From assembly GCA_965655095.1 (NCBI GenBank), contig OZ296652.1:2728001-2792000 (forward strand): DNA of 64,000 nt. Direction: 5' to 3'. This DNA is from Haplodiscus bocki. Taxonomy: Eukaryota. Below the pieces are notes generated by a model. That model saw nothing but the letters and a program-made list of their open reading frames with translations, was not told where the DNA came from and made no database searches. This document shows, one piece after another, positions 1-35,217 of the stretch (positions within the stretch are counted from its first letter, which is position 1; every line of letters begins with the position of its first letter). The translations under genes and the position numbers were made by a program.

Positions 1-2055
1 TAGAAAATCAAGGAGCTCGAAAAAGCGAAGTTATTCAAAATCTTTTTGAACCGGAGGAGAGACAAAGTCGTTGTTCCAATATTAAAAGTTTTATAGAAAA
101 AAGTCGCTTTTTATTGCAACAAAATATTCATTCGCTCAAGCTTGGATACACTTTACTTGACTCAACCAAAAAATGCTTGCAGATGTCTACCAGTGTGGAA
201 CTTTGTCCATCTACAGAAAGTGATAAATTTTGCCATCGAAAGTTAACGATGATCTGGTTGGAGGGCGATTAATAGTGTTTACTTGTATAATTGTTGTTGA
301 CGAAACTCGCAATCGCGAGTCCACGAAAGGATGGATTGTTGAAATTGATGCTGACCAAATTCACCCTTACTCAATGTGTCGACCTATGCTTACAGGACTT
401 CACACAAAAAACAATTTCGGTGCAGAAGTGCAATGATTCAAGCCTCGTCAGAACAAGTCTGAGAGCTTCAAAGAAAGTTATGTCGTACTTTCGATGAAGG
501 ACAACCGATTGTAAAACTGAGAATTTCTGCATAACAGGAAGTCAAAGAAGATCGATTGTTTCAATGCAAAGGAGCTTTGTGGACTTCTCAATTTAGTGCT
601 TGAGGCAAGGAGTTGTTTTTAACCGAACTGTTTTTTAAAGGAGCACAACCAGCTCTAATTTAAGATGAAATCCAACAGAAAACGAAAGGGAGAGAAAAGG
701 ATGAAATGAACAATATACCACAGAGAACGGTTTCACTGTTGTCGAGATGTGAGAAAGTCCATGTTGGAAATTCTACACGACGGATCTAGTGGTAGAGAAC
801 ACTTGAAAATTTATGTCCCATACAAGCCCCCATTTCGTTAGGATCCGTTTTTGGAGCAGATAAAATCAGACTTATTGTTTAGTTATGTACAGTGTAATAT
901 GAAGGTCTCGGAACATCTTAGAGAACATTTCGCCACTTTTTCGCCAATTTTCGAAAAATAAACATGTGTCGACAAAGTAAAGGTCCATTATAGGAGGGTA
1001 AGCTCAGAATAAAAGGTTATTGTCCCAACCGTGACAAATGTTAATTTCTAGATTCGAGCTAACCAATGGAACCATTACTCCCTTGCTACTATTTTAATTC
1101 GAGTTGAGACTCTTGAGCACAAAAAATATCGCTCTGTTGATTAGACACCTGTGAAATGTGTTAACGACTTTGTGCAATCTTCTATTAATGCTGGTCGTCA
1201 GTGAGCCGATATTCCCATTTGTATTGTTGTTGCAGAAACTGTTAAATTGCTTACCAACAGCTCGTTTGGTTATCAAGTTTGGACCGCAGTCGCCAGTCAA
1301 TTACAAAATACATGAATGATGAAAAAACACATGCATCGATCAACATTAAAATGTTCAGGAGATTGGGTATTATCAACGACCAACTTTACGGAGTGAAGTT
1401 TGCCAAATCTGAAATTGAACACGGGAATCAATCAGTTTAGTCTTCTTTATCTTAGGTACACTAAATTGAGAATGCTGGAGCTGTAGTACAACTTTTTTCC
1501 ACAAAATTTTGCGATAAGAAGTATGAGTAGTTGTAAAGAGACAGCAATTCACTGTGTTTAGTATTAGCAGTAAATGAAATGGCTGTTTGTATACGAACTG
1601 AGAAGGCATGAACCGGAACTGTTACGTAGCATAAACTGTAATAAATGGTTCACCGCAGACGCTTGCAGCAGTTTTTTCCCCATGAATTGTTGTGCTAAAC
1701 AAAATGAAGACATGATGAGAGAGAGAACCTGGATTGCTCAAGGAAGAATTCTGATGTGCCAAAGAGTTGACATTGTGTAATAAGACATACTGCCTCAGTG
1801 AATCTCTGAGCAACAAGTGTAAATTCAGCAGCAAAGGATTGAACATACGGACATTTGAAGACATTGGTGATGCACCCATGGCAGAAATAAAAAATTTCGG
1901 ACGAAGTAACAAACGAAACATTCACTAAACGTGAGTTTCGCAAAAAGAATCTTTGTTTTGCAACCTACGAGCAAATAAAGAAGTAACTCTTTTCCTATCT
2001 ACCAAAACAAAAAGTAGACGCAGATGCAGTCAGTACTCATCCATCGCGAGTTTAA
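1..2055 (+). pseudogene. Decayed protein-primed family B DNA polymerase (Polinton/Maverick/adintovirus-type pPolB), C-terminal half; positions ~120-2055 are repeated in every array unit
   Basis: PolB motifs appear in order across frameshifts and stops. Pre-motif A and motif A: DLVGGRLIVF..VVDET...IVEIDADQIHPYSMCRPMLTGL (~250-400, cf. GIDASQLYPYSM..MPTG). An insert KKIDCF.....C...LEA..CF follows (~545-620). Motif B reads VKLLTNSSFGYQ (~1241-1276), decayed motif C reads RDSNSLCL (~1538-1560, cf. MDTDSLY), and the KxY motif reads LCNKTYC...KFSSKGLN (~1773-1845). The C-terminus SYLPKQKVDADAVSTHPSRV* ends at 2055. Homology continues into the unique left flank 1-119 (DKVVVPILK...AFY). Confidence 0.85.
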
Positions 2056-5000
2056 ATTTCAAAAAATTTAGGTTTTACTCACATATAAAAGCTAATTCAC
2101 TGTTTAAAAATTTTCAAATGGATCATTTCACATAGCAGCAAGCAAAAACCGCAAGAAAATAGCCGCAGACGTAAAAAATTATGCAAAGTCGCAATGAAAA
2201 ATCTGCCGGGCCTTTTAAAAAATGTGGCACCGTCTGCGGTGGTTCGACATCCCGTAGGACGCCTCTTCTCTTCCACCACCTTCTGCTCACGCATTACTAC
2301 TACACTAATGGACAAAACAAAGCAGATTTCAAGGATGAACCAAATGACATTAGAACCCTAAAACTTTGTGAACTTTGATGAACCTGACTAGTGCCGATGC
2401 ATCGCACTGCAAAAAAAAAGCCCATGCGTTGCCCATTTTAACGTATTGGATATCTTTTGACTCAAGGCGGTGTCAGGGCCAAAATATTCATTCGCTCAAG
2501 CTTGGATACACTTTACTTGACTCAACCAAAAAATGCTTGCAGATTTCTACCAGTGTGGAACTTTGTCCACCTACAGAAAGTGATAAATTTTGCCATCGAA
2601 AGTTAACGATGATCTGGTTGGAGGGCGATTAATAGTGTTTACTTGTATAATTGTTGTTGACGAAACTCGCAATCGCGAGTCCACGAAAGGATGGATTGTT
2701 GAAATTGATGCTGACCAAATTCACCCTTACTCAATGTGTCGACCTATGCTTACAGGACTTCACACAAAAAACAATTTCGGTGCAGAAGTGCAATGATTCA
2801 AGCCTCGTCAGAACAAGTCTGAGAGCTTCAAAGAAAGTTATGTCGTACTTTCGATGAAGGACAACCGATTGTAAAACTGAGAATTTCTGCATAACAGGAA
2901 GTCAAAGAAGATCGATTGTTTCAATGCAAAGGAGCTTTGTGGACTTCTCAATTTAGTGCTTGAGGCAAGGAGTTGTTTTTAACCGAACTGTTTTTTAAAG
3001 GAGCACAACCAGCTCTAATTTAAGATGAAATCCAACAGAAAACGAAAGGGAGAGAAAAGGATGAAATGAACAATATACCACAGAGAACGGTTTCACTGTT
3101 GTCGAGATGTGAGAAAGTCCATGTTGGAAATTCTACACGACGGATCTAGTGGTAGAGAACACTTGAAAATTTATGTCCCATACAAGCCCCCATTTCGTTA
3201 GGATCCGTTTTTGGAGCAGATAAAATCAGACTTATTGTTTAGTTATGTACAGTGTAATATGAAGGTCTCGGAACATCTTAGAGAACATTTCGCCACTTTT
3301 TCGCCAATTTTCGAAAAATAAACATGTGTCGACAAAGTAAAGGTCCATTATAGGAGGGTAAGCTCAGAATAAAAGGTTATTGTCCCAACCGTGACAAATG
3401 TTAATTTCTAGATTCGAGCTAACCAATGGAACCATTACTCCCTTGCTACTATTTTAATTCGAGTTGAGACTCTTGAGCACAAAAAATATCGCTCTGTTGA
3501 TTAGACACCTGTGAAATGTGTTAACGACTTTGTGCAATCTTCTATTAATGCTGGTCGTCAGTGAGCCGATATTCCCATTTGTATTGTTGTTGCAGAAACT
3601 GTTAAATTGCTTACCAACAGCTCGTTTGGTTATCAAGTTTGGACCGCAGTCGCCAGTCAATTACAAAATACATGAATGATGAAAAAACACATGCATCGAT
3701 CAACATTAAAATGTTCAGGAGATTGGGTATTATCAACGACCAACTTTACGGAGTGAAGTTTGCCAAATCTGAAATTGAACACGGGAATCAATCAGTTTAG
3801 TCTTCTTTATCTTAGGTACACTAAATTGAGAATGCTGGAGCTGTAGTACAACTTTTTTCCACAAAATTTTGCGATAAGAAGTATGAGTAGTTGTAAAGAG
3901 ACAGCAATTCACTGTGTTTAGTATTAGCAGTAAATGAAATGGCTGTTTGTATACGAACTGAGAAGGCATGAACCGGAACTGTTACGTAGCATAAACTGTA
4001 ATAAATGGTTCACCGCAGACGCTTGCAGCAGTTTTTTCCCCATGAATTGTTGTGCTAAACAAAATGAAGACATGATGAGAGAGAGAACCTGGATTGCTCA
4101 AGGAAGAATTCTGATGTGCCAAAGAGTTGACATTGTGTAATAAGACATACTGCCTCAGTGAATCTCTGAGCAACAAGTGTAAATTCAGCAGCAAAGGATT
4201 GAACATACGGACATTTGAAGACATTGGTGATGCACCCATGGCAAAAATAAAAAATTTCGGACGAAGTAACAAACGAAACATTCACTAAACGTGAGTTTCG
4301 CAAAAAGAATCTTTGTTTTGCAACCTACGAGCAAATAAAGAAGTAACTCTTTTCCTATCTACCAAAACAAAAAGTAGACGCAGATGCAGTCAGTACTCAT
4401 CCATCGCGAGTTTAAATTTCAAAAATTTTAGGTTTTACTCACATATAAAAGCTAATTCACTGTTTAAAAATTTTCAAATGGATCATTTCACATAGCAGCA
4501 AGCAAAAACCGCAAGAAAATAGCCGCAGACGTAAAAAATTATGCAAAGTCGCAATGAAAAATCTGCCGGGCCTTTTAAAAAATGTGGCACCGTCTGCGGT
4601 GGTTCGACATCCCGTAGGACGCCTCTTCTCTTCCACCACCTTCTGCTCACGCATTACTACTACACTAATGGACAAAACAAAGCAGATTTCAAGGATGAAC
4701 CAAATGACATTAGAACCCTAAAACTTTGTGAACTTTGATGAACCTGACTAGTGCCGATGCATCGCACTGCAAAAAAAAGCCCATGCGTTGCCCATTTTAA
4801 CGTATTGGATATCTTTTGACTCAAGGCGGTGTCAGGGCCAAAATATTCATTCGCTCAAGCTTGGATACACTTTACTTGACTCAACCAAAAAATGCTTGCA
4901 GATTTCTACCAGTGTGGAACTTTGTCCATCTACAGAAAGTGATAAATTTTGCCATCGAAAGTTAACGATGATCTGGTTGGAGGGCGATTAATAGTGTTTA

Positions 5001-8000
5001 CTTGTATAATTGTTGTTGACGAAACTCGCAATCGCAAGTCCACGAAAGGATGGATTGTTGAAATTGATGCTGACCAAATTCACCCTTACTCAATGTGTCG
5101 ACCTATGCTTACAGGACTTCACACAAAAAACAATTTCGGTGCAGAAGTGCAATGATTCAAGCCTCGTCAGAACAAGTCTGAGAGCTTCAAAGAAAGTTAT
5201 GTCGTACTTTCGATGAAGGACAACCGATTGTAAAACTGAGAATTTCTGCATAACAGGAAGTCAAAGAAGATCGATTGTTTCAATGCAAAGGAGCTTTGTG
5301 GACTTCTCAATTTAGTGCTTGAGGCAAGGAGTTGTTTTTAACCGAACTGTTTTTTAAAGGAGCACAACCAGCTCTAATTTAAGATGAAATCCAACAGAAA
5401 ACGAAAGGGAGAGAAAAGGATGAAATGAACAATATACCACAGAGAACGGTTTCACTGTTGTCGAGATGTGAGAAAGTCCATGTTGGAAATTCTACACGAC
5501 GGATCTAGTGGTAGAGAACACTTGAAAATTTATGTCCCATACAAGCCCCCATTTCGTTAGGATCCGTTTTTGGAGCAGATAAAATCAGACTTATTGTTTA
5601 GTTATGTACAGTGTAATATGAAGGTCTCGGAACATCTTAGAGAACATTTCGCCACTTTTTCGCCAATTTTCGAAAAATAAACATGTGTCGACAAAGTAAA
5701 GGTCCATTATAGGAGGGTAAGCTCAGAATAAAAGGTTATTGTCCCAACCGTGACAAATGTTAATTTCTAGATTCGAGCTAACCAATGGAACCATTACTCC
5801 CTTGCTACTATTTTAATTCGAGTTGAGACTCTTGAGCACAAAAAATATCGCTCTGTTGATTAGACACCTGTGAAATGTGTTAACGACTTTGTGCAATCTT
5901 CTATTAATGCTGGTCGTCAGTGAGCCGATATTCCCATTTGTATTGTTGTTGCAGAAACTGTTAAATTGCTTACCAACAGCTCGTTTGGTTATCAAGTTTG
6001 GACCGCAGTCGCCAGTCAATTACAAAATACATGAATGATGAAAAAACACATGCATCGATCAACATTAAAATGTTCAGGAGATTGGGTATTATCAACGACC
6101 AACTTTACGGAGTGAAGTTTGCCAAATCTGAAATTGAACACGGGAATCAATCAGTTTAGTCTTCTTTATCTTAGGTACACTAAATTGAGAATGCTGGAGC
6201 TGTAGTACAACTTTTTTCCACAAAATTTTGCGATAAGAAGTATGAGTAGTTGTAAAGAGACAGCAATTCACTGTGTTTAGTATTAGCAGTAAATGAAATG
6301 GCTGTTTGTATACGAACTGAGAAGGCATGAACCGGAACTGTTACGTAGCATAAACTGTAATAAATGGTTCACCGCAGACGCTTGCAGCAGTTTTTTCCCC
6401 ATGAATTGTTGTGCTAAACAAAATGAAGACATGATGAGAGAGAGAACCTGGATTGCTCAAGGAAGAATTCTGATGTGCCAAAGAGTTGACATTGTGTAAT
6501 AAGACATACTGCCTCAGTGAATCTCTGAGCAACAAGTGTAAATTCAGCAGCAAAGGATTGAACATACGGACATTTGAAGACATTGGTGATGCACCCATGG
6601 CAAAAATAAAAAATTTCGGACGAAGTAACAAACGAAACATTCACTAAACGTGAGTTTCGCAAAAAGAATCTTTGTTTTGCAACCTACGAGCAAATAAAGA
6701 AGTAACTCTTTTCCTATCTACCAAAACAAAAAGTAGACGCAGATGCAGTCAGTACTCATCCATCGCGAGTTTAAATTTCAAAAATTTTAGGTTTTACTCA
6801 CATATAAAAGCTAATTCACTGTTTAAAAATTTTCAAATGGATCATTTCACATAGCAGCAAGCAAAAACCGCAAGAAAATAGCCGCAGACGTAAAAAATTA
6901 TGCAAAGTCGCAATGAAAAATCTGCCGGGCCTTTTAAAAAATGTGGCACCGTCTGCGGTGGTTCGACATCCCGTAGGACGCCTCTTCTCTTCCACCACCT
7001 TCTGCTCACGCATTACTACTACACTAATGGACAAAACAAAGCAGATTTCAAGGATGAACCAAATGACATTAGAACCCTAAAACTTTGTGAACTTTGATGA
7101 ACCTGACTAGTGCCGATGCATCGCACTGCAAAAAAAAGCCCATGCGTTGCCCATTTTAACGTATTGGATATCTTTTGACTCAAGGCGGTGTCAGGGCCAA
7201 AATATTCATTCGCTCAAGCTTGGATACACTTTACTTGACTCAACCAAAAAATGCTTGCAGATTTCTACCAGTGTGGAACTTTGTCCATCTACAGAAAGTG
7301 ATAAATTTTGCCATCGAAAGTTAACGATGATCTGGTTGGAGGGCGATTAATAGTGTTTACTTGTATAATTGTTGTTGACGAAACTCGCAATCGCAAGTCC
7401 ACGAAAGGATGGATTGTTGAAATTGATGCTGACCAAATTCACCCTTACTCAATGTGTCGACCTATGCTTACAGGACTTCACACAAAAAACAATTTCGGTG
7501 CAGAAGTGCAATGATTCAAGCCTCGTCAGAACAAGTCTGAGAGCTTCAAAGAAAGTTATGTCGTACTTTCGATGAAGGACAACCGATTGTAAAACTGAGA
7601 ATTTCTGCATAACAGGAAGTCAAAGAAGATCGATTGTTTCAATGCAAAGGAGCTTTGTGGACTTCTCAATTTAGTGCTTGAGGCAAGGAGTTGTTTTTAA
7701 CCGAACTGTTTTTTAAAGGAGCACAACCAGCTCTAATTTAAGATGAAATCCAACAGAAAACGAAAGGGAGAGAAAAGGATGAAATGAACAATATACCACA
7801 GAGAACGGTTTCACTGTTGCGAGATGTGAGAAAGTCCATGTTGGAAATTCTACACGACGGATCTAGTGGTAGAGAACACTTGAAAATTTATGTCCCATAC
7901 AAGCCCCCATTTCGTTAGGATCCGTTTTTGGAGCAGATAAAATCAGACTTATTGTTTAGTTATGTACAGTGTAATATGAAGGTCTCGGAACATCTTAGAG

Positions 8001-14000: not shown

Positions 14001-17000
14001 CCGGGCCTTTTAAAAAATGTGGCACCGTCTGCGGTGGTTCGACATCCCGTAGGACGCCTCTTCTCTTCCACCACCTTCTGCTCACGCATTACTACTACAC
14101 TAATGGACAAAACAAAGCAGATTTCAAGGATGAACCAAATGACATTAGAACCCTAAAACTTTGTGAACTTTGATGAACCTGACTAGTGCCGATGCATCGC
14201 ACTGCAAAAAAAAGCCCATGCGTTGCCCATTTTAACGTATTGGATATCTTTTGACTCAAGGCGGTGTCAGGGCCAAAATATTCATTCGCTCAAGCTTGGA
14301 TACACTTTACTTGACTCAACCAAAAAATGCTTGCAGATTTCTACCAGTGTGGAACTTTGTCCATCTACAGAAAGTGATAAATTTTGCCATCGAAAGTTAA
14401 CGATGATCTGGTTGGAGGGCGATTAATAGTGTTTACTTGTATAATTGTTGTTGACGAAACTCGCAATCGCAAGTCCACGAAAGGATGGATTGTTGAAATT
14501 GATGCTGACCAAATTCACCCTTACTCAATGTGTCGACCTATGCTTACAGGACTTCACACAAAAAACAATTTCGGTGCAGAAGTGCAATGATTCAAGCCTC
14601 GTCAGAACAAGTCTGAGAGCTTCAAAGAAAGTTATGTCGTACTTTCGATGAAGGACAACCGATTGTAAAACTGAGAATTTCTGCATAACAGGAAGTCAAA
14701 GAAGATCGATTGTTTCAATGCAAAGGAGCTTTGTGGACTTCTCAATTTAGTGCTTGAGGCAAGGAGTTGTTTTTAACCGAACTGTTTTTTAAAGGAGCAC
14801 AACCAGCTCTAATTTAAGATGAAATCCAACAGAAAACGAAAGGGAGAGAAAAGGATGAAATGAACAATATACCACAGAGAACGGTTTCACTGTTGTCGAG
14901 ATGTGAGAAAGTCCATGTTGGAAATTCTACACGACGGATCTAGTGGTAGAGAACACTTGAAAATTTATGTCCCATACAAGCCCCCATTTCGTTAGGATCC
15001 GTTTTTGGAGCAGATAAAATCAGACTTATTGTTTAGTTATGTACAGTGTAATATGAAGGTCTCGGAACATCTTAGAGAACATTTCGCCACTTTTTCGCCA
15101 ATTTTCGAAAAATAAACATGTGTCGACAAAGTAAAGGTCCATTATAGGAGGGTAAGCTCAGAATAAAAGGTTATTGTCCCAACCGTGACAAATGTTAATT
15201 TCTAGATTCGAGCTAACCAATGGAACCATTACTCCCTTGCTACTATTTTAATTCGAGTTGAGACTCTTGAGCACAAAAAATATCGCTCTGTTGATTAGAC
15301 ACCTGTGAAATGTGTTAACGACTTTGTGCAATCTTCTATTAATGCTGGTCGTCAGTGAGCCCGATATTCCCATTTGTATTGTTGTTGCAGAAACTGTTAA
15401 ATTGCTTACCAACAGCTCGTTTGGTTATCAAGTTTGGACCGCAGTCGCCAGTCAATTACAAAATACATGAATGATGAAAAAACACATGCATCGATCAACA
15501 TTAAAATGTTCAGGAGATTGGGTATTATCAACGACCAACTTTACGGAGTGAAGTTTGCCAAATCTGAAATTGAACACGGGAATCAATCAGTTTAGTCTTC
15601 TTTATCTTAGGTACACTAAATTGAGAATGCTGGAGCTGTAGTACAACTTTTTTCCACAAAATTTTGCGATAAGAAGTATGAGTAGTTGTAAAGAGACAGC
15701 AATTCACTGTGTTTAGTATTAGCAGTAAATGAAATGGCTGTTTGTATACGAACTGAGAAGGCATGAACCGGAACTGTTACGTAGCATAAACTGTAATAAA
15801 TGGTTCACCGCAGACGCTTGCAGCAGTTTTTTCCCCATGAATTGTTGTGCTAAACAAAATGAAGACATGATGAGAGAGAGAACCTGGATTGCTCAAGGAA
15901 GAATTCTGATGTGCCAAAGAGTTGACATTGTGTAATAAGACATACTGCCTCAGTGAATCTCTGAGCAACAAGTGTAAATTCAGCAGCAAAGGATTGAACA
16001 TACGGACATTTGAAGACATTGGTGATGCACCCATGGCAAAAATAAAAAATTTCGGACGAAGTAACAAACGAAACATTCACTAAACGTGAGTTTCGCAAAA
16101 AGAATCTTTGTTTTGCAACCTACGAGCAAATAAAGAAGTAACTCTTTTCCTATCTACCAAAACAAAAAGTAGACGCAGATGCAGTCAGTACTCATCCATC
16201 GCGAGTTTAAATTTCAAAAATTTTAGGTTTTACTCACATATAAAAGCTAATTCACTGTTTAAAAATTTTCAAATGGATCATTTCACATAGCAGCAAGCAA
16301 AAACCGCAAGAAAATAGCCGCAGACGTAAAAAATTATGCAAAGTCGCAATGAAAAATCTGCCGGGCCTTTTAAAAAATGTGGCACCGTCTGCGGTGGTTC
16401 GACATCCCGTAGGACGCCTCTTCTCTTCCACCACCTTCTGCTCACGCATTACTACTACACTAATGGACAAAACAAAGCAGATTTCAAGGATGAACCAAAT
16501 GACATTAGAACCCTAAAACTTTGTGAACTTTGATGAACCTGACTAGTGCCGATGCATCGCACTGCAAAAAAAAGCCCATGCGTTGCCCATTTTAACGTAT
16601 TGGATATCTTTTGACTCAAGGCGGTGTCAGGGCCAAAATATTCATTCGCTCAAGCTTGGATACACTTTACTTGACTCAACCAAAAAATGCTTGCAGATTT
16701 CTACCAGTGTGGAACTTTGTCCATCTACAGAAAGTGATAAATTTTGCCATCGAAAGTTAACGATGATCTGGTTGGAGGGCGATTAATAGTGTTTACTTGT
16801 ATAATTGTTGTTGACGAAACTCGCAATCGCAAGTCCACGAAAGGATGGATTGTTGAAATTGATGCTGACCAAATTCACCCTTACTCAATGTGTCGACCTA
16901 TGCTTACAGGACTTCACACAAAAAACAATTTCGGTGCAGAAGTGCAATGATTCAAGCCTCGTCAGAACAAGTCTGAGAGCTTCAAAGAAAGTTATGTCGT

Positions 17001-20000
17001 ACTTTCGATGAAGGACAACCGATTGTAAAACTGAGAATTTCTGCATAACAGGAAGTCAAAGAAGATCGATTGTTTCAATGCAAAGGAGCTTTGTGGACTT
17101 CTCAATTTAGTGCTTGAGGCAAGGAGTTGTTTTTAACCGAACTGTTTTTTAAAGGAGCACAACCAGCTCTAATTTAAGATGAAATCCAACAGAAAACGAA
17201 AGGGAGAGAAAAGGATGAAATGAACAATATACCACAGAGAACGGTTTCACTGTTGTCGAGATGTGAGAAAGTCCATGTTGGAAATTCTACACGACGGATC
17301 TAGTGGTAGAGAACACTTGAAAATTTATGTCCCATACAAGCCCCCATTTCGTTAGGATCCGTTTTTGGAGCAGATAAAATCAGACTTATTGTTTAGTTAT
17401 GTACAGTGTAATATGAAGGTCTCGGAACATCTTAGAGAACATTTCGCCACTTTTTCGCCAATTTTCGAAAAATAAACATGTGTCGACAAAGTAAAGGTCC
17501 ATTATAGGAGGGTAAGCTCAGAATAAAAGGTTATTGTCCCAACCGTGACAAATGTTAATTTCTAGATTCGAGCTAACCAATGGAACCATTACTCCCTTGC
17601 TACTATTTTAATTCGAGTTGAGACTCTTGAGCACAAAAAATATCGCTCTGTTGATTAGACACCTGTGAAATGTGTTAACGACTTTGTGCAATCTTCTATT
17701 AATGCTGGTCGTCAGTGAGCCGATATTCCCATTTGTATTGTTGTTGCAGAAACTGTTAAATTGCTTACCAACAGCTCGTTTGGTTATCAAGTTTGGACCG
17801 CAGTCGCCAGTCAATTACAAAATACATGAATGATGAAAAAACACATGCATCGATGTGCCAAAGAGTTGACATTGTGTAATAAGACATACTGCCTCAGTGA
17901 ATCTCTGAGCAACAAGTGTAAATTCAGCAGCAAAGGATTGAACATACGGACATTTGAAGACATTGGTGATGCACCCATGGCAAAAATAAAAAATTTCGGA
18001 CGAAGTAACAAACGAAACATTCACTAAACGTTAGTTTCGCAAAAAGAATCTTTGTTTTGCAACCTACGAGCAAATAAAGAAGTAACTCTTTTCCTATCTA
18101 CCAAAACAAAAAGTAGACGCAGATGCAGTCAGTACTCATCCATCGCGAGTTTAAATTTCAAAAATTTTAGGTTTTACTCACATATAAAAGCTAATTCACT
18201 GTTTAAAAATTTTCAAATGGATCATTTCACATAGCAGCAAGCAAAAACCGCAAGAAAATAGCCGCAGACGTAAAAAATTATGCAAAGTCGCAATGAAAAA
18301 TCTGCCGGGCCTTTTAAAAAATGTGGCACCGTCTGCGGTGGTTCGACATCCCGTAGGACGCCTCTTCTCTTCCACCACCTTCTGCTCACGCATTACTACT
18401 ACACTAATGGACAAAACAAAGCAGATTTCAAGGATGAACCAAATGACATTAGAACCCTAAAACTTTGTGAACTTTGATGAACCTGACTAGTGCCGATGCA
18501 TCGCACTGCAAAAAAAGCCCATGCGTTGCCCATTTTAACGTATTGGATATCTTTTGACTCAAGGCGGTGTCAGGGCCAAAATATTCATTCGCTCAAGCTT
18601 GGATACACTTTACTTGACTCAACCAAAAAATGCTTGCAGATTTCTACCAGTGTGGAACTTTGTCCATCTACAGAAAGTGATAAATTTTGCCATCGAAAGT
18701 TAACGATGATCTGGTTGGAGGGCGATTAATAGTGTTTACTTGTATAATTGTTGTTGACGAAACTCGCAATCGCAAGTCCACGAAAGGATGGATTGTTGAA
18801 ATTGATGCTGACCAAATTCACCCTTACTCAATGTGTCGACCTATGCTTACAGGACTTCACACAAAAAACAATTTCGGTGCAGAAGTGCAATGATTCAAGC
18901 CTCGTCAGAACAAGTCTGAGAGCTTCAAAGAAAGTTATGTCGTACTTTCGATGAAGGACAACCGATTGTAAAACTGAGAATTTCTGCATAACAGGAAGTC
19001 AAAGAAGATCGATTGTTTCAATGCAAAGGAGCTTTGTGGACTTCTCAATTTAGTGCTTGAGGCAAGGAGTTGATTTTAACCGAACTGTTTTTTAAAGGAG
19101 CACAACCAGCTCTAATTTAAGATGAAATCCAACAGAAAACGAAAGGGAGAGAAAAGGATGAAATGAACAATATACCACAGAGAACGGTTTCACTGTTGTC
19201 GAGATGTGAGAAAGTCCATGTTGGAAATTCTACACGACGGATCTAGTGGTAGAGAACACTTGAAAATTTATGTCCCATACAAGCCCCCATTTCGTTAGGA
19301 TCCGTTTTTGGAGCAGATAAAATCAGACTTATTGTTTAGTTATGTACAGTGTAATATGAAGGTCTCGGAACATCTTAGAGAACATTTCGCCACTTTTTCG
19401 CCAATTTTCGAAAAATAAACATGTGTCGACAAAGTAAAGGTCCATTATAGGAGGGTAAGCTCAGAATAAAAGGTTATTGTCCCAACCGTGACAAATGTTA
19501 ATTTCTAGATTCGAGCTAACCAATGGAACCATTACTCCCTTGCTACTATTTTAATTCGAGTTGAGACTCTTGAGCACAAAAAATATCGCTCTGTTGATTA
19601 GACACCTGTGAAATGTGTTAACGACTTTGTGCAATCTTCTATTAATGCTGGTCGTCAGTGAGCCGATATTCCCATTTGTATTGTTGTTGCAGAAACTGTT
19701 AAATTGCTTACCAACAGCTCGTTTGGTTATCAAGTTTGGACCGCAGTCGCCAGTCAATTACAAAATACATGAATGATGAAAAAACACATGCATCGATCAA
19801 CATTAAAATGTTCAGGAGATTGGGTATTATCAACAACCAACTTTACGGAGTGAAGTTTGCCAAATCTGAAATTGAACACGGGAATCAATCAGTTTAGTCT
19901 TCTTTATCTTAGGTACACTAAATTGAGAATGCTGGAGCTGTAGTACAACTTTTTTCCACAAAATTTTGCGATAAGAAGTATGAGTAGTTGTAAAGAGACA

Positions 20001-23000: not shown

Positions 23001-26000
23001 AAAGTCGCAATGAAAAATCTGCCGGGCCTTTTAAAAAATGTGGCACCGTCTGCGGTGGTTCGACATCCCGTAGGACGCCTCTTCTCTTCCACCACCTTCT
23101 GCTCACGCATTACTACTACACTAATGGACAAAACAAAGCAGATTTCAAGGATGAACCAAATGACATTAGAACCCTAAAACTTTGTGAACTTTGATGAACC
23201 TGACTAGTGCCGATGCATCGCACTGCAAAAAAAAGCCCATGCGTTGCCCATTTTAACGTATTGGATATCTTTTGACTCAAGGCGGTGTCAGGGCCAAAAT
23301 ATTCATTCGCTCAAGCTTGGATACACTTTACTTGACTCAACCAAAAAATGCTTGCAGATTTCTACCAGTGTGGAACTTTGTCCATCTACAGAAAGTGATA
23401 AATTTTGCCATCGAAAGTTAACGATGATCTGGTTGGAGGGCGATTAATAGTGTTTACTTGTATAATTGTTGTTGACGAAACTCGCAATCGCAAGTCCACG
23501 AAAGGATGGATTGTTGAAATTGATGCTGACCAAATTCACCCTTACTCAATGTGTCGACCTATGCTTACAGGACTTCACACAAAAAACAATTTCGGTGCAG
23601 AAGTGCAATGATTCAAGCCTCGTCAGAACAAGTCTGAGAGCTTCAAAGAAAGTTATGTCGTACTTTCGATGAAGGACAACCGATTGTAAAACTGAGAATT
23701 TCTGCATAACAGGAAGTCAAAGAAGATCGATTGTTTCAATGCAAAGGAGCTTTGTGGACTTCTCAATTTAGTGCTTGAGGCAAGGAGTTGTTTTTAACCG
23801 AACTGTTTTTTAAAGGAGGACAACCAGCTCTAATTTAAGATGAAATCCAACAGAAAACGAAAGGGAGAGAAAAGGATGAAATGAACAATATACCACAGAG
23901 AACGGTTTCACTGTTGTCGAGATGTGAGAAAGTCCATGTTGGAAATTCTACACGACGGATCTAGTGGTAGAGAACACTTGAAAATTTATGTCCCATACAA
24001 GCCCCCATTTCGTTAGGATCCGTTTTTGGAGCAGATAAAATCAGACTTATTGTTTAGTTATGTACAGTGTAATATGAAGGTCTCGGAACATCTTAGAGAA
24101 CATTTCGCCACTTTTTCGCCAATTTTCGAAAAATAAACATGTGTCGACAAAGTAAAGGTCCATTATAGGAGGGTAAGCTCAGAATAAAAGGTTATTGTCC
24201 CAACCGTGACAAATGTTAATTTCTAGATTCGAGCTAACCAATGGAACCATTACTCCCTTGCTACTATTTTAATTCGAGTTGAGACTCTTGAGCACAAAAA
24301 ATATCGCTCTGTTGATTAGACACCTGTGAAATGTGTTAACGACTTTGTGCAATCTTCTATTAATGCTGGTCGTCAGTGAGCCGATATTCCCATTTGTATT
24401 GTTGTTGCAGAAACTGTTAAATTGCTTACCAACAGCTCGTTTGGTTATCAAGTTTGGACCGCAGTCGCCAGTCAATTACAAAATACATGAATGATGAAAA
24501 AACACATGCATCGATCAACATTAAAACGTTCAGGAGATTGGGTATTATCAACAACCAACTTTACGGAGTGAAGTTTGCCAAATCTGAAATTGAACACGGG
24601 AATCAATCAGTTTAGTCTTCTTTATCTTAGGTACACTAAATTGAGAATGCTGGAGCTGTAGTACAACTTTTTTCCACAAAATTTTGCGATAAGAAGTATG
24701 AGTAGTTGTAAAGAGACAGCAATTCACTGTGTTTAGTATTAGCAGTAAATGAAATGGCTGTTTGTATACGAACTGAGAAGGCATGAACCGGAACTGTTAC
24801 GTAGCATAAACTGTAATAAATGGTTCACCGCAGACGCTTGCAGCAGTTTTTTCCCCATGAATTGTTGTGCTAAACAAAATGAAGACATGATGAGAGAGAG
24901 AACCTGGATTGCTCAAGGAAGAATTCTGATGTGCCAAAGAGTTGACATTGTGTAATAAGACATACTGCCTCAGTGAATCTCTGAGCAACAAGTGTAAATT
25001 CAGCAGCAAAGGATTGAACATACGGACATTTGAAGACATTGGTGATGCACCCATGGCAAAAATAAAAAATTTCGGACGAAGTAACAAACGAAACATTCAC
25101 TAAACGTGAGTTTCGCAAAAAGAATCTTTGTTTTGCAACCTACGAGCAAATAAAGAAGTAACTCTTTTCCTATCTACCAAAACAAAAAGTAGACGCAGAT
25201 GCAGTCAGTACTCATCCATCGCGAGTTTAAATTTCAAAAATTTTAGGTTTTACTCACATATAAAAGCTAATTCACTGTTTAAAAATTTTCAAATGGATCA
25301 TTTCACATAGCAGCAAGCAAAAACCGCAAGAAAATAGCCGCAGACGTAAAAAATTATGCAAAGTCGCAATGAAAAATCTGCCGGGCCTTTTAAAAAATGT
25401 GGCACCGTCTGCGGTGGTTCGACATCCCGTAGGACGCCTCTTCTCTTCCACCACCTTCTGCTCACGCATTACTACTACACTAATGGACAAAACAAAGCAG
25501 ATTTCAAGGATGAACCAAATGACATTAGAACCCTAAAACTTTGTGAACTTTGATGAACCTGACTAGTGCCGATGCATCGCACTGCAAAAAAAAGCCCATG
25601 CGTTGCCCATTTTAACGTATTGGATATCTTTTGACTCAAGGCGGTGTCAGGGCCAAAATATTCATTCGCTCAAGCTTGGATACACTTTACTTGACTCAAC
25701 CAAAAAATGCTTGCAGATTTCTACCAGTGTGGAACTTTGTCCATCTACAGAAAGTGATAAATTTTGCCATCGAAAGTTAACGATGATCTGGTTGGAGGGC
25801 GATTAATAGTGTTTACTTGTATAATTGTTGTTGACGAAACTCGCAATCGCAAGTCCACGAAAGGATGGATTGTTGAAATTGATGCTGACCAAATTCACCC
25901 TTACTCAATGTGTCGACCTATGCTTACAGGACTTCACACAAAAAACAATTTCGGTGCAGAAGTGCAATGATTCAAGCCTCGTCAGAACAAGTCTGAGAGC

Positions 26001-29000
26001 TTCAAAGAAAGTTATGTCGTACTTTCGATGAAGGACAACCGATTGTAAAACTGAGAATTTCTGCATAACAGGAAGTCAAAGAAGATCGATTGTTTCAATG
26101 CAAAGGAGCTTTGTGGACTTCTCAATTTAGTGCTTGAGGCAAGGAGTTGTTTTTAACCGAACTGTTTTTTAAAGGAGCACAACCAGCTCTAATTTAAGAT
26201 GAAATCCAACAGAAAACGAAAGGGAGAGAAAAGGATGAAATGAACAATATACCACAGAGAACGGTTTCACTGTTGTCGAGATGTGAGAAAGTCCATGTTG
26301 GAAATTCTACACGACGGATCTAGTGGTAGAGAACACTTGAAAATTTATGTCCCATACAAGCCCCCATTTCGTTAGGATCCGTTTTTGGAGCAGATAAAAT
26401 CAGACTTATTGTTTAGTTATGTACAGTGTAATATGAAGGTCTCGGAACATCTTAGAGAACATTTCGCCACTTTTTCGCCAATTTTCGAAAAATAAACATG
26501 TGTCGACAAAGTAAAGGTCCATTATAGGAGGGTAAGCTCAGAATAAAAGGTTATTGTCCCAACCGTGACAAATGTTAATTTCTAGATTCGAGCTAACCAA
26601 TGGAACCATTACTCCCTTGCTACTATTTTAATTCGAGTTGAGACTCTTGAGCACAAAAAATATCGCTCTGTTGATTAGACACCTGTGAAATGTGTTAACG
26701 ACTTTGTGCAATCTTCTATTAATGCTGGTCGTCAGTGAGCCGATATTCCCATTTGTATTGTTGTTGCAGAAACTGTTAAATTGCTTACCAACAGCTCGTT
26801 TGGTTATCAAGTTTGGACCGCAGTCGCCAGTCAATTACAAAATACATGAATGATGAAAAAACACATGCATCGATCAACATTAAAATGTTCAGGAGATTGG
26901 GTATTATCAACGACCAACTTTACGGAGTGAAGTTTGCCAAATCTGAAATTGAACACGGGAATCAATCAGTTTAGTCTTCTTTATCTTAGGTACACTAAAT
27001 TGAGAATGCTGGAGCTGTAGTACAACTTTTTTCCACAAAATTTTGCGATAAGAAGTATGAGTAGTTGTAAAGAGACAGCAATTCACTGTGTTTAGTATTA
27101 GCAGTAAATGAAATGGCTGTTTGTATACGAACTGAGAAGGCATGAACCGGAACTGTTACGTAGCATAAACTGTAATAAATGGTTCACCGCAGACGCTTGC
27201 AGCAGTTTTTTCCCCATGAATTGTTGTGCTAAACAAAATGAAGACATGATGAGAGAGAGAACCTGGATTGCTCAAGGAAGAATTCTGATGTGCCAAAGAG
27301 TTGACATTGTGTAATAAGACATACTGCCTCAGTGAATCTCTGAGCAACAAGTGTAAATTCAGCAGCAAAGGATTGAACATACGGACATTTGAAGACATTG
27401 GTGATGCACCCATGGCAAAAATAAAAAATTTCGGACGAAGTAACAAACGAAACATTCACTAAACGTGAGTTTCGCAAAAAGAATCTTTGTTTTGCAACCT
27501 ACGAGCAAATAAAGAAGTAACTCTTTTCCTATCTACCAAAACAAAAAGTAGACGCAGATGCAGTCAGTACTCATCCATCGCGAGTTTAAATTTCAAAAAT
27601 TTTAGGTTTTACTCACATATAAAAGCTAATTCACTGTTTAAAAATTTTCAAATGGATCATTTCACATAGCAGCAAGCAAAAACCGCAAGAAAATAGCCGC
27701 AGACGTAAAAAATTATGCAAAGTCGCAATGAAAAATCTGCCGGGCCTTTTAAAAAATGTGGCACCGTCTGCGGTGGTTCGACATCCCGTAGGACGCCTCT
27801 TCTCTTCCACCACCTTCTGCTCACGCATTACTACTACACTAATGGACAAAACAAAGCAGATTTCAAGGATGAACCAAATGACATTAGAACCCTAAAACTT
27901 TGTGAACTTTGATGAACCTGACTAGTGCCGATGCATCGCACTGCAAAAAAAAGCCCATGCGTTGCCCATTTTAACGTATTGGATATCTTTTGACTCAAGG
28001 CGGTGTCAGGGCCAAAATATTCATTCGCTCAAGCTTGGATACACTTTACTTGACTCAACCAAAAAATGCTTGCAGATTTCTACCAGTGTGGAACTTTGTC
28101 CATCTACAGAAAGTGATAAATTTTGCCATCGAAAGTTAACGATGATCTGGTTGGAGGGCGATTAATAGTGTTTACTTGTATAATTGTTGTTGACGAAACT
28201 CGCAATCGCAAGTCCACGAAAGGATGGATTGTTGAAATTGATGCTGACCAAATTCACCCTTACTCAATGTGTCGACCTATGCTTACAGGACTTCACACAA
28301 AAAACAATTTCGGTGCAGAAGTGCAATGATTCAAGCCTCGTCAGAACAAGTCTGAGAGCTTCAAAGAAAGTTATGTCGTACTTTCGATGAAGGACAACCG
28401 ATTGTAAAACTGAGAATTTCTGCATAACAGGAAGTCAAAGAAGATCGATTGTTTCAATGCAAAGGAGCTTTGTGGACTTCTCAATTTAGTGCTTGAGGCA
28501 AGGAGTTGTTTTTAACCGAACTGTTTTTTAAAGGAGCACAACCAGCTCTAATTTAAGATGAAATCCAACAGAAAACGAAAGGGAGAGAAAAGGATGAAAT
28601 GAACAATATACCACAGAGAACGGTTTCACTGTTGTCGAGATGTGAGAAAGTCCATGTTGGAAATTCTACACGACGGATCTAGTGGTAGAGAACACTTGAA
28701 AATTTATGTCCCATACAAGCCCCCATTTCGTTAGGATCCGTTTTTGGAGCAGATAAAATCAGACTTATTGTTTAGTTATGTACAGTGTAATATGAAGGTC
28801 TCGGAACATCTTAGAGAACATTTCGCCACTTTTTCGCCAATTTTCGAAAAATAAACATGTGTCGACAAAGTAAAGGTCCATTATAGGAGGGTAAGCTCAG
28901 AATAAAAGGTTATTGTCCCAACCGTGACAAATGTTAATTTCTAGATTCGAGCTAACCAATGGAACCATTACTCCCTTGCTACTATTTTAATTCGAGTTGA

Positions 29001-32000
29001 GACTCTTGAGCACAAAAAATATCGCTCTGTTGATTAGACACCTGTGAAATGTGTTAACGACTTTGTGCAATCTTCTATTAATGCTGGTCGTCAGTGAGCC
29101 GATATTCCCATTTGTATTGTTGTTGCAGAAACTGTTAAATTGCTTACCAACAGCTCGTTTGGTTATCAAGTTTGGACCGCAGTCGCCAGTCAATTACAAA
29201 ATACATGAATGATGAAAAAACACATGCATCGATCAACATTAAAATGTTCAGGAGATTGGGTATTATCAACGACCAACTTTACGGAGTGAAGTTTGCCAAA
29301 TCTGAAATTGAACACGGGAATCAATCAGTTTAGTCTTCTTTATCTTAGGTACACTAAATTAAGAATGCTGGAGCTGTAGTACAACTTTTTTCCACAAAAT
29401 TTTGCGATAAGAAGTATGAGTAGTTGTAAAGAGACAGCAATTCACTGTGTTTAGTATTAGCAGTAAATGAAATGGCTGTTTGTATACGAACTGAGAAGGC
29501 ATGAACCGGAACTGTTACGTAGCATAAACTGTAATAAATGGTTCACCGCAGACGCTTGCAGCAGTTTTTTCCCCATGAATTGTTGTGCTAAACAAAATGA
29601 AGACATGATGAGAGAGAGAACCTGGATTGCTCAAGGAAGAATTCTGATGTGCCAAAGAGTTGACATTGTGTAATAAGACATACTGCCTCAGTGAATCTCT
29701 GAGCAACAAGTGTAAATTCAGCAGCAAAGGATTGAACATACGGACATTTGAAGACATTGGTGATGCACCCATGGCAAAAATAAAAAATTTCGGACGAAGT
29801 AACAAACGAAACATTCACTAAACGTGAGTTTCGCAAAAAGAATCTTTGTTTTGCAACCTACGAGCAAATAAAGAAGTAACTCTTTTCCTATCTACCAAAA
29901 CAAAAAGTAGACACAGATGCTGTCAGTACTCATCCATCGCGAGTTTAAATTTCAAAAATTTTAGGTTTTACTCACATATAAAAGCTAATTCACTGTTTAA
30001 AAATTTTCAAATGGATCATTTCACATAGCAGCAAGCAAAAACCGCAAGAAAATAGCCGCAGACGTAAAAAATTATGCAAAGTCGCAATGAAAAATCTGCC
30101 GGGCCTTTTAAAAAATGTGGCACCGTCTGCGGTGGTTCGACATCCCGTAGGACGCCTCTTCTCTTCCACCACCTTCTGCTCACGCATTACTACTACACTA
30201 ATGGACAAAACAAAGCGGATTTCAAGGATGAACCAAATGACATTAGAACCCTAAAACTTTGTGAACTTTGATGAACCTGACTAGTGCCGATGCATCGCAC
30301 TGCAAAAAAAGCCCATGCGTTGCCCATTTTAACGTATTGGATATCTTTTGACTCAAGGCGGTGTCAGGGCCAAAATATTCATTCGCTCAAGCTTGGATAC
30401 ACTTTACTTGACTCAACCAAAAAATGCTTGCAGATTTCTACCAGTGTGGAACTTTGTCCATCTACAGAAAGTGATAAATTTTGCCATCGAAAGTTAACGA
30501 TGATCTGGTTGGAGGGCGATTAATAGTGTTTACTTGTATAATTGTTGTTGACGAAACTCGCAATCGCAAGTCCACGAAAGGATGGATTGTTGAAATTGAT
30601 GCTGACCAAATTCACCCTTACTCAATGTGTCGACCTATGCTTACAGGACTTCACACAAAAAACAATTTCGGTGCAGAAGTGCAATGATTCAAGCCTCGTC
30701 AGAACAAGTCTGAGAGCTTCAAAGAAAGTTATGTCGTACTTTCGATGAAGGACAACCGATTGTAAAACTGAGAATTTCTGCATAACAGGAAGTCAAAGAA
30801 GATCGATTGTTTCAATGCAAAGGAGCTTTGTGGACTTCTCAATTTAGTGCTTGAGGCAAGGAGTTGTTTTTAACCGAACTGTTTTTTAAAGGAGCACAAC
30901 CAGCTCTAATTTAAGATGAAATCCAACAGAAAACGAAAGGGAGAGAAAAGGATGAAATGAACAATATACCACAGAGAACGGTTTCACTGTTGTCGAGATG
31001 TGAGAAAGTCCATGTTGGAAATTCTACACGACGGATCTAGTGGTAGAGAACACTTGAAAATTTATGTCCCATACAAGCCCCCATTTCGTTAGGATCCGTT
31101 TTTGGAGCAGATAAAATCAGACTTATTGTTTAGTTATGTACAGTGTAATATGAAGGTCTCGGAACATCTTAGAGAACATTTCGCCACTTTTTCGCCAATT
31201 TTCGAAAAATAAACATGTGTCGACAAAGTAAAGGTCCATTATAGGAGGGTAAGCTCAGAATAAAAGGTTATTGTCCCAACCGTGACAAATGTTAATTTCT
31301 AGATTCGAGCTAACCAATGGAACCATTACTCCCTTGCTACTATTTTAATTCGAGTTGAGACTCTTGAGCACAAAAAATATCGCTCTGTTGATTAGACACC
31401 TGTGAAATGTGTTAACGACTTTGTGCAATCTTCTATTAATGCTGGTCGTCAGTGAGCCGATATTCCCATTTGTATTGTTGTTGCAGAAACTGTTAAATTG
31501 CTTACCAACAGCTCGTTTGGTTATCAAGTTTGGACCGCAGTCGCCAGTCAATTACAAAATACATGAATGATGAAAAAACACATGCATCGATCAACATTAA
31601 AATGTTCAGGAGATTGGGTATTATCAACGACCAACTTTACGGAGTGAAGTTTGCCAAATCTGAAATTGAACACGGGAATCAATCAGTTTAGTCTTCTTTA
31701 TCTTAGGTACACTAAATTGAGAATGCTGGAGCTGTAGTACAACTTTTTTCCACAAAATTTTGCGATAAGAAGTATGAGTAGTTGTAAAGAGACAGCAATT
31801 CACTGTGTTTAGTATTAGCAGTAAATGAAATGGCTGTTTGTATACGAACTGAGAAGGCATGAACCGGAACTGTTACGTAGCATAAACTGTAATAAATGGT
31901 TCACCGCAGACGCTTGCAGCAGTTTTTTCCCCATGAATTGTTGTGCTAAACAAAATGAAGACATGATGAGAGAGAGAACCTGGATTGCTCAAGGAAGAAT

Positions 32001-32741
32001 TCTGATGTGCCAAAGAGTTGACATTGTGTAATAAGACATACTGCCTCAGTGAATCTCTGAGCAACAAGTGTAAATTCAGCAGCAAAGGATTGAACATACG
32101 GACATTTGAAGACATTGGTGATGCACCCATGGCAAAAATAAAAAATTTCGGACGAAGTAACAAACGAAACATTCACTAAACGTGAGTTTCGCAAAAAGAA
32201 TCTTTGTTTTGCAACCTACGAGCAAATAAAGAAGTAACTCTTTTCCTATCTACCAAAACAAAAAGTAGACGCAGATGCAGTCAGTACTCATCCATCGCGA
32301 GTTTAAATTTCAAAAATTTTAGGTTTTACTCACATATAAAAGCTAATTCACTGTTTAAAAATTTTCAAATGGATCATTTCACATAGCAGCAAGCAAAAAC
32401 CGCAAGAAAATAGCCGCAGACGTAAAAAATTATGCAAAGTCGCAATGAAAAATCTGCCGGGCCTTTTAAAAAATGTGGCACCGTCTGCGGTGGTTCGACA
32501 TCCCGTAGGACGCCTCTTCTCTTCCACCACCTTCTGCTCACGCATTACTACTACACTAATGGACAAAACAAAGCAGATTTCAAGGATGAACCAAATGACA
32601 TTAGAACCCTAAAACTTTGTGAACATTGATGAACCTGACTAGTGCCGATGCATCGCACTGCAAAAAAAAGCCCATGCGTTGCCCATTTTAACGTATTGGA
32701 TATCTTTTGACTCAAGGCGGTGTCAGGGCCAAAATATTCAT
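120..32741 (+). repeat. Tandem macrosatellite-like array, 14 units of ~2359 bp (unit 8 is 1943 bp)
   Basis: The same ORF set recurs at 230, 2590, 4949, 7308, 9666, 12025, 14384, 16744, 18687, 21046, 23405, 25764, 28123 and 30481. Spacings are 2358-2360 except one of 1943. Unit starts are approximately 120, 2480, 4839, 7198, 9556, 11915, 14274, 16634, 18577, 20936, 23295, 25654, 28013 and 30371. Only scattered SNPs and 1-bp indels separate the units. Unique sequence resumes after ...gggccaaaatattcat at 32741. Confidence 0.98.
16634..18576 (+). repeat. Array unit 8 with a 415-bp internal deletion
   Basis: The sequence reads catgcatcGATgtgccaaag at ~17845-17863. This joins unit-1 equivalent positions 1340 and 1756 through a 3-bp GAT microhomology. 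Confidence 0.95.
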
Positions 32742-34989
32742 GCGTCAGGGTAACCCAACTTTCACCGAATATATTACCTATCTTGATACATTGTATATCT
32801 ATTGAAAACAATGTAGAGAAAACGAGAAGGGGCATCCAGCCCAAAACACCGATTCAGGCTACGTTCAGCGCTCGGACCGCTGTAGCCTATCCTTATATAT
32901 GAGAGGACTCCACCGCCCGTCTGATCAACGCACTCTCTCACCATTCCTACTTTAATGCTTAAAAGCAAACAAAAACAGGGTCGTGTTGACAAAAGTAAGT
33001 AAGTGTTTTTTGGCAAGTTTGCTCTTTTTCTTGCAAAACTTAGTTGTTCTTTGACGTAAATGAATGAACTCGTTTTGTTTTTCTTAAAGTTTTGGGAAAT
33101 TCTCTCGGTTTTCTGGAAAAGCAGACAGGAAAATTACAAATGTTTTAAAAATTTTTGAGTATAAAAAAAGTGTTCTCTGCAGCCATGGGCATCAGCTATC
33201 GCTGCCGACTTAGTTTCTCCGGCGTCGAAAAAGGACACATTTTGTGCGAGAATGCTTCTGCTGGAACATGCCTTTCTGTAATCTCCACCTTGATAGTATG
33301 CAAAAAATGCCAATCAGTTTTGGTTTCTTTGAAACTGAAGCCCAATTTCATTCAAAATACATAAATTAATGCTTTCTCTTAAGTCCTTACAGCAGACTTC
33401 TTTTTTGAGGACCAGTTTTTGGTTGAAAAATCATTGGTTTTTTCACTTGATCGGGGAAAACCACAAATCCGAGAAAGTTACTTTGGTCATGTAAACCCTC
33501 GCTTATGAACCTACTAATCTCTCCATAACTAATGGACTGATTTCATACATCAACTTCTCAACGGACGCCTAATCTTAAACTTGTGAAGGATTATGCAACG
33601 TCATCAATTAGATTACTGGCGTCGTAGTGTTGATTGTCCAAAGTTCCGAAAAGTTCTGATCAACATGTTTTATCTCGCTGCTCAAACTCGTTCTTCTCCC
33701 TTACTACCAGCTTCTTTCCTTCACGCAAGGTCTCAACCAGTGGTCTCTGGTTTTTGATGAACGTTACAGTTCGAAATTATCAATTTCGATCCTTACAATG
33801 GAATCTTTGCAGTGTAAAATTGTTTAAAAGGATATATTTTTGGACTTATCTTGCTATCCAGACTTGTCTCTCTAAAACCACTGACTTGATTTCTTCCTTC
33901 AAAAATGCAATACAAAGCTTTGCTCTTGTGTTGGATTATCCAACTGAAAAGTCACAAAAATTTTCTCTCCGTGTAGTGGAATCCTGATGTACAAGAAAAT
34001 CCAGAATATGCTATCAGTCTTGATCTGACCTACCTCGATATTTAGGTATATTTTTCTTCAATTTGTTCAATTTTTCTTCCAAGGTGTCCGCCGTTTACTT
34101 TTTCGTTGAGGAATACTACGTCTGCTTAAAAATCATAAAATTTGTTTCTTTTAATGGAATTGGAGTCCTGATTGATCAAAGGGTGGTAAAGTGCTATAGC
34201 ATAGACATATCTCAATATTCGATTTCATCCTCCTCGAAAACCACTGCTTTGAATTCTGAATTCTTCCATCAAGGTTTGAATTGACTTTGACTGTTTTATA
34301 CTATCAATCGACCCTTAGGTTGAACAATCTCTGATTTTGTTCCTTAGATTGGAATCCTGATGCCCGAAATTGCCAAAGAGTCCTATTAATCTTGTTTTTC
34401 TGCCGATTTTCAAACTCACAATTATCTAAAGCTACAGATCTGAATTCTTCCGTGAATGTCGCCGTCGAGAACTTTTGGCTGCCAGAAATGGGTTTTTTTT
34501 AAATTTAATTGTTGTTTGTTCGATCAATCATTTCTCCGCCCCTTCGACGGAAAATATCGCAGTGCGACTGCGCCTCTCGTTTGATTTTTTCCGGGTCATC
34601 GCTCCCGCTTGGCTTGTGAGTTTATTTTCGATATTTTATGCAATTTCAGCAGTCAAAACCCAAAAAGTGCGGGTACAAGCTAAATTCAGTGCTTTATCAA
34701 GTTTAGCCTCTAAATTGTCAAAGTTATTCAAATAAATATTCCTTCAGATTTATAAAATTCGATATATTCAGAACAATTTGAAATTTGGTTTTCAGCATTC
34801 AGAAAATCTAAAATTTGGAATCAAATTTGTTTTTAGGCTTTCTTTTCCATGTTAAGAGCTAAATTTCATGGATTTCATTTCCAAATCTCTAAAACAAAGC
34901 CTGAAAGCATCCTTGGACAATCTCCGGATAATATTTCAAACAACTATTCACCTTGCTGGGTGTTCTTTAAATTTGTGCTTTTGTTTCAG

Positions 34990-35217
34990 CTCCCTTAATC
35001 GAGTATGTGAACAACAACTTTGATGGAAAAGCGAAGGTAGTGAGGACCTCTTCTAGACATGGTTTGATCAGGGCTAAAAACTTTGGTAGTAAACACGCCA
35101 CCGGGGAAGCTTTAATTTTCCTGGATTCCCACTGCGAGTGCACTACAGGCTGGCTTCCACCTCTCCTGCAAGCTTTAAAGCAAAATCCCAAAACTGTCGT
35201 CCAACCAGTCATTCCAG
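34990..35217 (+). CDS. GALNT: GALNT exon (GT-A catalytic domain, DxH motif)
   Basis: Acceptor ttgtttcag|. Translation [75 protein letters not shown]. Donor G|gtatcc, phase 1. Confidence 0.93.

Follow-up and report, generated by a model that had tools for sequence, protein, structure and literature searches.

A 64,000-nt stretch of the Haplodiscus bocki genome (NCBI GenBank assembly GCA_965655095.1, contig OZ296652.1, positions 2,728,001 to 2,792,000 of the forward strand; hereafter the window, with positions counted from its first letter) contains a tandem array of 14 near-identical units, most of each unit being identified by homology as the remnant of a protein-primed DNA polymerase of family B (pPolB), Polinton-type and with a VSR-type insert. 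The array is real, and the exact count of 14 is that of one assembled haplotype. The explanation that we consider probable is neutral amplification, in place, of a segment of a polymerase gene that was already long dead. The array also appears to lie, in sense orientation, in an intron of a polypeptide GalNAc-transferase gene. Positions of these features are collected in Table 1.

Table 1. Features of the array, its boundaries and the host gene, in window coordinates.
Feature	Position	Strand	Remarks
Head-to-tail array: 14 units with a period of 2,359 bp, and 12 bp of terminal redundancy	120..32741	+	from window self-comparison
Left flank, single-copy: dead pPolB continued upstream, likewise broken (region of the exonuclease III motif)	34..119	+	rest of element left of window
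12-bp direct repeat, left boundary	120..131	+	recurs at every unit junction
12-bp direct repeat, right boundary	32730..32741	+	unrelated sequence beyond
Unit 1, pPolB part	120..2043	+	aligned with residues 794-1443 of P0245 (1,446 aa): Pol A, VSR-like insert, Pol B, Pol C, C-terminus; 17 frameshifts, 16 in-frame stops
Unit 1, tail of about 436 bp	2044..2479	+	3' of polymerase; no Pfam family or tblastn match
Unit 8 (1,943 bp), with internal deletion of 415 bp in polymerase part	16634..18576	+	junction near 17852, 3-bp microhomology
Host polypeptide GalNAc-transferase, last five coding exons	34990-35217, 53907-54114, 54541-54720, 62585-63028, 63421-63547	+	canonical AG/GT, 394 open codons, stop codon present

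Structure of the array

An earlier note on this DNA, made from the letters alone, had described a 32.6-kb array of nearly identical units, the eighth lacking part of the region. Its coordinates proved exact. Units begin at 120, 2480, 4839, 7198, 9556, 11915, 14274, 16634, 18577, 20936, 23295, 25654, 28013, and 30371, and the array ends at 32741, closed by a fifteenth copy of the unit's first 12 bp; no insertion interrupts it. The units differ pairwise by a mean of 3.6 single nucleotide polymorphisms (SNPs; 0.15%) and a maximum of 8, and unit 8 is indeed missing a block inside the polymerase part. Variation across units comprises 21 SNP sites (13 of them transitions) and five indel variants, two of which fall within one A run. 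All four of the SNPs common to at least two units are limited to adjacent units (1-2, 4-5, 4-6, and 9-11; permutation p 2e-4), a clustering that points to local duplication rather than read error.

Macrosatellites are homogeneous head-to-tail arrays of kilobase units extending over tens of kilobases, polymorphic in copy number and present at one or a few loci. The array has the structural features of this class, with 14 x 2,359 bp at 99.8% identity over 32.6 kb, its copy number being at the low end. Unit GC content is 38%. One frame of unit 3 shares 98% identity with a 53-aa database protein (P0003), so that public collections already contain the unit, or a very close copy of it, in the form of a spurious short open reading frame (ORF).

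Such uniformity raises the question of whether the array, or its copy number, could be an artefact of assembly, generated by read looping or by joined haplotypes. The identity of the units, the 3 pairs of 91 without any SNP difference, and the indels in the A run would be in keeping with this, and passages of PMC8268682 describe a similar oyster array whose monomer count, 17 or 6, differs between assemblies. However, the variation consists mostly of substitutions, those that are shared lie in neighbouring units, and one unit carries a clean microhomology deletion, a pattern that read error would not give. Of the alternatives considered here an artefact is the least probable.

Polymerase identity of the unit

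In each full unit, polymerase homology extends over unit positions 1-1924 (81.6%), in agreement with the earlier estimate that about 80% of each unit is decayed pPolB. The frameshift-aware score is 1321, as compared with at most 47 for 15 shuffled sequences and 38 for the reverse strand, and a frameshift-aware alignment to the closest intact relative (P0245) has 352 identities in 639 positions (55%) over window positions 34-2043. A phmmer search of 1.84 billion proteins with one unit frame returned 553 relatives (E<=0.001; lowest value 1e-33). Pfam DNA_pol_B_2 was matched by 4 of 12 relatives scanned, among them P0001, the best phmmer match, at E 2.4e-12. A second search brought in relatives closer still, with P0245 the closest of them. 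The predicted fold of P0001 (pLDDT 89) has phi29 polymerase as its top match in the PDB (E 7e-10); a sequence search of the PDB with P0001 had no matches, and the fold search was required. The top viral matches to this fold are adintovirus, bidnavirus-like, and adenovirus PolBs, the Adintovirus PolB coming second (E 4e-32) at 15% identity, which indicates enzyme kinship only.

The earlier note had proposed a profile search of the unit against this family, and the outcome depends on the route taken. Scanned directly against Pfam, unit 1 matched no family in any of its six frames; relatives recovered by phmmer and the DNA_pol_B_2 match of P0001 are positive. A word-indexed protein search with one unit frame likewise passed none of 3,432 candidates. 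Both nulls are failures of sensitivity, since it was the same frame with which phmmer found its 553 relatives.

The half of the gene carried by the unit is the C-terminal one: in the established nomenclature of PolB motifs (Pol A, Pol B, Pol C, exonuclease), exonuclease motifs I and II map upstream of the window. A family profile matches structures of E. coli Vsr (E 8e-6), and the VSR stretch, residues 955-1018 of P0245, is between Pol A and Pol B and inside the part aligned with the unit. A VSR-like endonuclease in this position is also found in the VSR pPolB2 of marine nematode and mollusc Polintons, as described in part of bioRxiv 10.1101/2023.08.22.554363, and the unit shares with this type the insert in the polymerase. 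Those polymerases, however, are intact genes in elements bearing terminal inverted repeats, and the likeness here comes from the VSR insert, not from tree placement.

Sections of PMC8502044 define Polintons by PolB together with a retrovirus-like integrase, and adintoviruses by virion genes as well; the adintovirus gene set there includes adenain protease, hexon, penton, and FtsK-type ATPase alongside PolB. Adintovirus PolBs are of Alpha or Beta class and have an OTU domain at the N-terminus, a part of the gene that would lie outside the window. The protein-primed type B DNA polymerase of Polintons (Mavericks) is present in the window, over some 640 residues. Pfam revealed no integrase in the unit or at 32742-35660, and the rest of the source element would be left of the window; the integrase at 44385-44981 is part of an LTR (long terminal repeat) retroelement (see below), not of the element from which the polymerase came. 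A general Pfam scan of the unit and right flank, with no dedicated profiles, found no adenain protease, hexon, penton, or FtsK-type ATPase, and Pfam identified no other Polinton genes in the unit tail or right flank. Polintons are further marked by terminal inverted repeats and a target-site duplication; inverted repeats of terminal type are absent from 1-2479 and 32700-35664, the element's other end being outside the window. When 3,468 window fragments were compared with the polymerase profile, 82 matches fell in the array or left flank and none to the right. The label given earlier, "Polinton/adintovirus", therefore survives in its first half, as a Polinton-type pPolB remnant of which the letters in view include only the polymerase; the polymerase by itself cannot decide the second.

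The unit tail matched no Pfam family in its three plus-strand frames or in whole-unit frames, and had no tblastn match from the proteins compared; it is possibly the element's intergenic region or its next gene. A scan of the tail for bacterial promoters, with a model not apt for an animal, gave matches at chance level. Among the database proteins, dozens of pPolB relatives (P0227-P0298) are intact or truncated, some in clusters of more than 100 members on contigs of several hundred kilobases, which suggests genomes heavily colonised by this polymerase family. A resemblance to polymerase families of acoels is possible.

Decay, amplification in place, and possible function

Each full unit carries about 33 lesions. 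The set found in unit 1 is identical in 9 of the 13 others; units 4, 7, and 9 each have one lesion different, and unit 8 loses those within its deletion. The same stops and frameshifts do thus recur across units, as had been claimed from inspection, and their number rules out amplification for protein dosage, which the earlier note had also discounted. From the number of stops, and with three different transition biases assumed, the gene has accumulated 0.17-0.25 substitutions per site after its death. Units lie on average 0.0008 per site from the commonest type, their distances fit a single Poisson burst (dispersion p 0.20), and the ratio of decay to array depth is roughly 200-300. Divergence between the two long terminal repeats (LTRs) of an adjacent retroelement is 5.4%, which puts its insertion, per lineage, at roughly 33-fold the depth of the array.

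By themselves, lesions in common are no proof that amplification was late, because concerted evolution would spread them in an old array as well. By established theory, homogenising gene conversion and unequal exchange could keep units looking young while distributing the same lesions among them, and it is clear from the variants common to neighbours that units do exchange sequence. The ends of the array, however, are no more diverged than its interior: the opening 200 bp of unit 1 show 2 differences, and the final 72 bp of the array are the same as at 12 of the 13 junctions. No diverged or partial flanking units are seen at the array edges, no insertions have entered although both neighbouring introns carry elements, and the single-copy left flank is broken by lesions too. 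Because the outer ends match the interior and the array is free of insertions, its youth appears to be real, and most of the gap in reasoning from shared lesions is closed. An old, homogenised array is very unlikely. The evidence argues for a gene that decayed first and an array that is much younger, in relative dating only; the earlier conclusion that amplification came long after pseudogenisation is upheld on these broader grounds.

At the left boundary, polymerase homology crosses without a gap into single-copy DNA. This flank scores 53 by itself, against a maximum of 32 in 200 shuffles, and 13 of 3,064 tblastn segments reach into positions 1-119. Every one of the 15 exact occurrences in the window of the 12-mer found at both boundaries falls at a unit junction or an array end (per-site chance 3e-7). 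Continuation of the gene into the single-copy flank, together with the boundary repeat, indicates amplification in place. These two observations, and the probable intronic position, go beyond the earlier note. Insertion of the array from elsewhere is ruled out by the continuation into the flank, and tandem insertion of whole elements by the lack of an element terminus in the unit. At the right end (window 32710-32761), a 7-bp stretch of the unit end recurs just beyond the terminal 12-mer. Such an echo occurs at 3% of flank positions and was noticed post hoc; it could be a templated insertion or a truncated fifteenth unit.

The probable course of events would then be as follows. An old endogenous Polinton-type element with a VSR-type protein-primed polymerase decayed as a single copy, as the homology, the lesions, and the flank continuation show. 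Much later, an internal 2.36-kb segment, consisting of the 3' half of the dead gene and about 0.44 kb downstream, would have been duplicated in place. The 12-bp repeat is present at the boundary, and may have served a microhomology-mediated repair or replication event. Unequal exchange, perhaps joined by a rolling-circle step, would then have brought it rapidly to 14 units, two routes that are indistinguishable here, and the variant pattern is that expected if a few local re-duplications and one deletion came afterwards. The non-coding array would have been tolerated neutrally in a large intron of a glycosyltransferase gene. In this reading the viral origin of the unit is incidental to its amplification; passages of PMC9659126 report that any part of a transposon, ORFs included, can seed a satellite.

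Several considerations weigh against this account. Neutrality is its default, not a result. The right-hand 12-mer could be the stub of a deleted fifteenth unit or a templated insertion instead of pre-existing microhomology, as the 7-bp echo hints. Only 119 bp left of the array are in view. The decay estimate is based on 16 stops and an assumed mutation spectrum, without DNA of an intact relative. Finally, the host gene could be 5'-truncated, or could start in a short undetected exon.

The earlier note had offered two options: neutral birth of a satellite from an endogenous viral element, or selected amplification of a small-RNA template or chromatin element. The first is the best reading, given origin in place, youth, and no functional sequence feature. 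Under the second, the array would have been selected to template small RNAs directed at related Polintons, or to tune the glycosyltransferase gene through chromatin or intron length. Targets may exist, related intact polymerase ORFs occurring in large clusters; an intronic array would be co-transcribed with host pre-mRNA; and tandem endogenous geminivirus arrays in yam yield small interfering RNAs (siRNAs), according to passages of PMC5014472. C>T/G>A changes at CpG number 3 of 6, as compared with 16% expected (p 0.06), a borderline value and a weak hint of methylation. Transcription of the host gene, however, would yield polymerase RNA of sense rather than antisense polarity; no inverted repeat in the unit exceeds 20 nt, and the window has no Rfam matches. 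The unit's CpG observed/expected ratio of 0.85 equals that of the flanks (0.87-0.90). A younger copy would be a better small-RNA template. At 17-25% divergence, some 4-20% of 24-nt windows, with indels uncounted, would match a source with at most two mismatches, a fraction low enough to weaken small-RNA targeting rather than to exclude it. The unit lacks a long inverted repeat, the window lacks an Rfam match, the array is in sense orientation to the host gene, and divergence from the source is deep; the option of a small-RNA template or chromatin element finds no sequence evidence, and selection on the array seems unlikely. Its most elaborate form, in which a macrosatellite of fossil DNA-virus polymerase, intronic and co-transcribed, is selected to supply small RNAs against a large Polinton family or as a copy-number dial on the glycosyltransferase gene, is slightly less likely again. 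Neutral amplification remains the favoured explanation.

Host gene, neighbouring element, and comparable arrays

The GalNAc-transferase exons in the window begin near residue 185 of a 580-position family profile, and none of the 3,468 window fragments matched an earlier, N-terminal exon. Recovery of control fragments from the N-terminal region was 37 of 45 for a length of 15 aa, 39 of 40 for 20 aa, and 30 of 30 for 30 aa. With controls this sensitive, the lack of an upstream exon suggests that the array is probably in the preceding intron of an intact host gene. In a quick tree the GalNAc-transferase is on a long branch, in no supported group.

The intron following the first visible exon is occupied by a 17-kb LTR retroelement (35665-52497, minus strand, antisense in the host intron), so that the host gene evidently tolerates large insertions. 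The retroelement is decayed and has LTRs of about 1.5 kb; its Pfam matches to protease, RNase H, and integrase follow the order of domains in Ty3/gypsy elements, and a search for a target-site duplication was negative. Its downstream ORF (about 40146-40604, minus strand), now broken, matches Pfam Monjiviricetes_fusion at E 3e-8, above the curated cutoff, and is an envelope gene related to glycoproteins of negative-strand RNA viruses in a gypsy-type element. A possible Macro domain (48055-48372, minus strand; weak Pfam Macro match, E 0.2) is situated between its protease and reverse transcriptase. A tandem duplication of about 290 bp at 46249-46826, with 78% identity, covers its RNase H region, and short degenerate tandem repeats are found within it at 42400-42620 and 40800-41100.

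Tandem arrays derived from transposons and viruses are already known; this one is unusually legible. The human macrosatellites D4Z4, DXZ4, and RS447 resemble it, with a multi-kilobase unit, head-to-tail order, high homogeneity, and tens of copies. They are GC-rich and old, chromatin roles are known for them, and some have an intact ORF, whereas the present array is 38% GC, very young, non-coding, and of no known role.

Closer in origin is CgiSat52 of the Pacific oyster, also a marine invertebrate. As described in passages of PMC8268682, its 1,656-bp monomer has similarity to Repbase DNA/Polinton and is found on one chromosome, in 17 or 6 copies depending on the assembly. The similarity of non-Helitron satellites is called fragmentary there, and the matching part of the Polinton is unstated in those passages; here, by contrast, 82% of the unit is polymerase ORF, and source flank and junction are resolved. 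Excerpts of PMC5014472 describe geminivirus-related DNA (GRD) in Nicotiana and EGV1 in yam as a viral replication gene, degenerate or partial, that is repeated directly in tandem, with an EGV1 unit of 2.6 kb and arrays of perhaps more than 23 kb. These come from single-stranded DNA viruses of plants, their units keep an origin-like hairpin, and some show purifying selection and siRNAs; the present unit, unlike them, has neither terminus nor origin and was dead long before it was amplified.

The HinfI/CR1, PROsat/L1, and E900/gag satellites (in passages of PMC9659126) and internal-to-internal tandem transposable elements (in passages of bioRxiv 10.1101/158386) share with this array a monomer derived from a non-terminal part of a mobile element, and the same passages propose microhomology-mediated duplication and unequal exchange as routes to such satellites. 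Their sources, in contrast, are retrotransposons or cut-and-paste transposons. Retrotransposon-derived tandem arrays are also described in part of PMC7004042. The main texts of PMC9659126, bioRxiv 10.1101/158386, and PMC12628747 have no mention of Polinton or Maverick. In the open-access literature, with subscription journals outside its scope and most matches judged from listings, no description was found of a satellite with a pPolB ORF as monomer.

As a neutral event, the array would represent a well-resolved satellite birth, in which source flank, junction, expansion history, and relative age can all be read. It would show that a coding fragment, long dead and without terminal repeats, is able to seed an array of 33 kb, one that probably lies within a working gene, and array growth, array loss, and the consequences for the host intron could be tested in a population. 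There is also a warning here for annotation, as arrays of this kind inflate Polinton counts, here by 14, without transposition. No general picture would be changed unless a function is found; if a selected role should prove true, this would be a virus-derived satellite caught while acquiring function.

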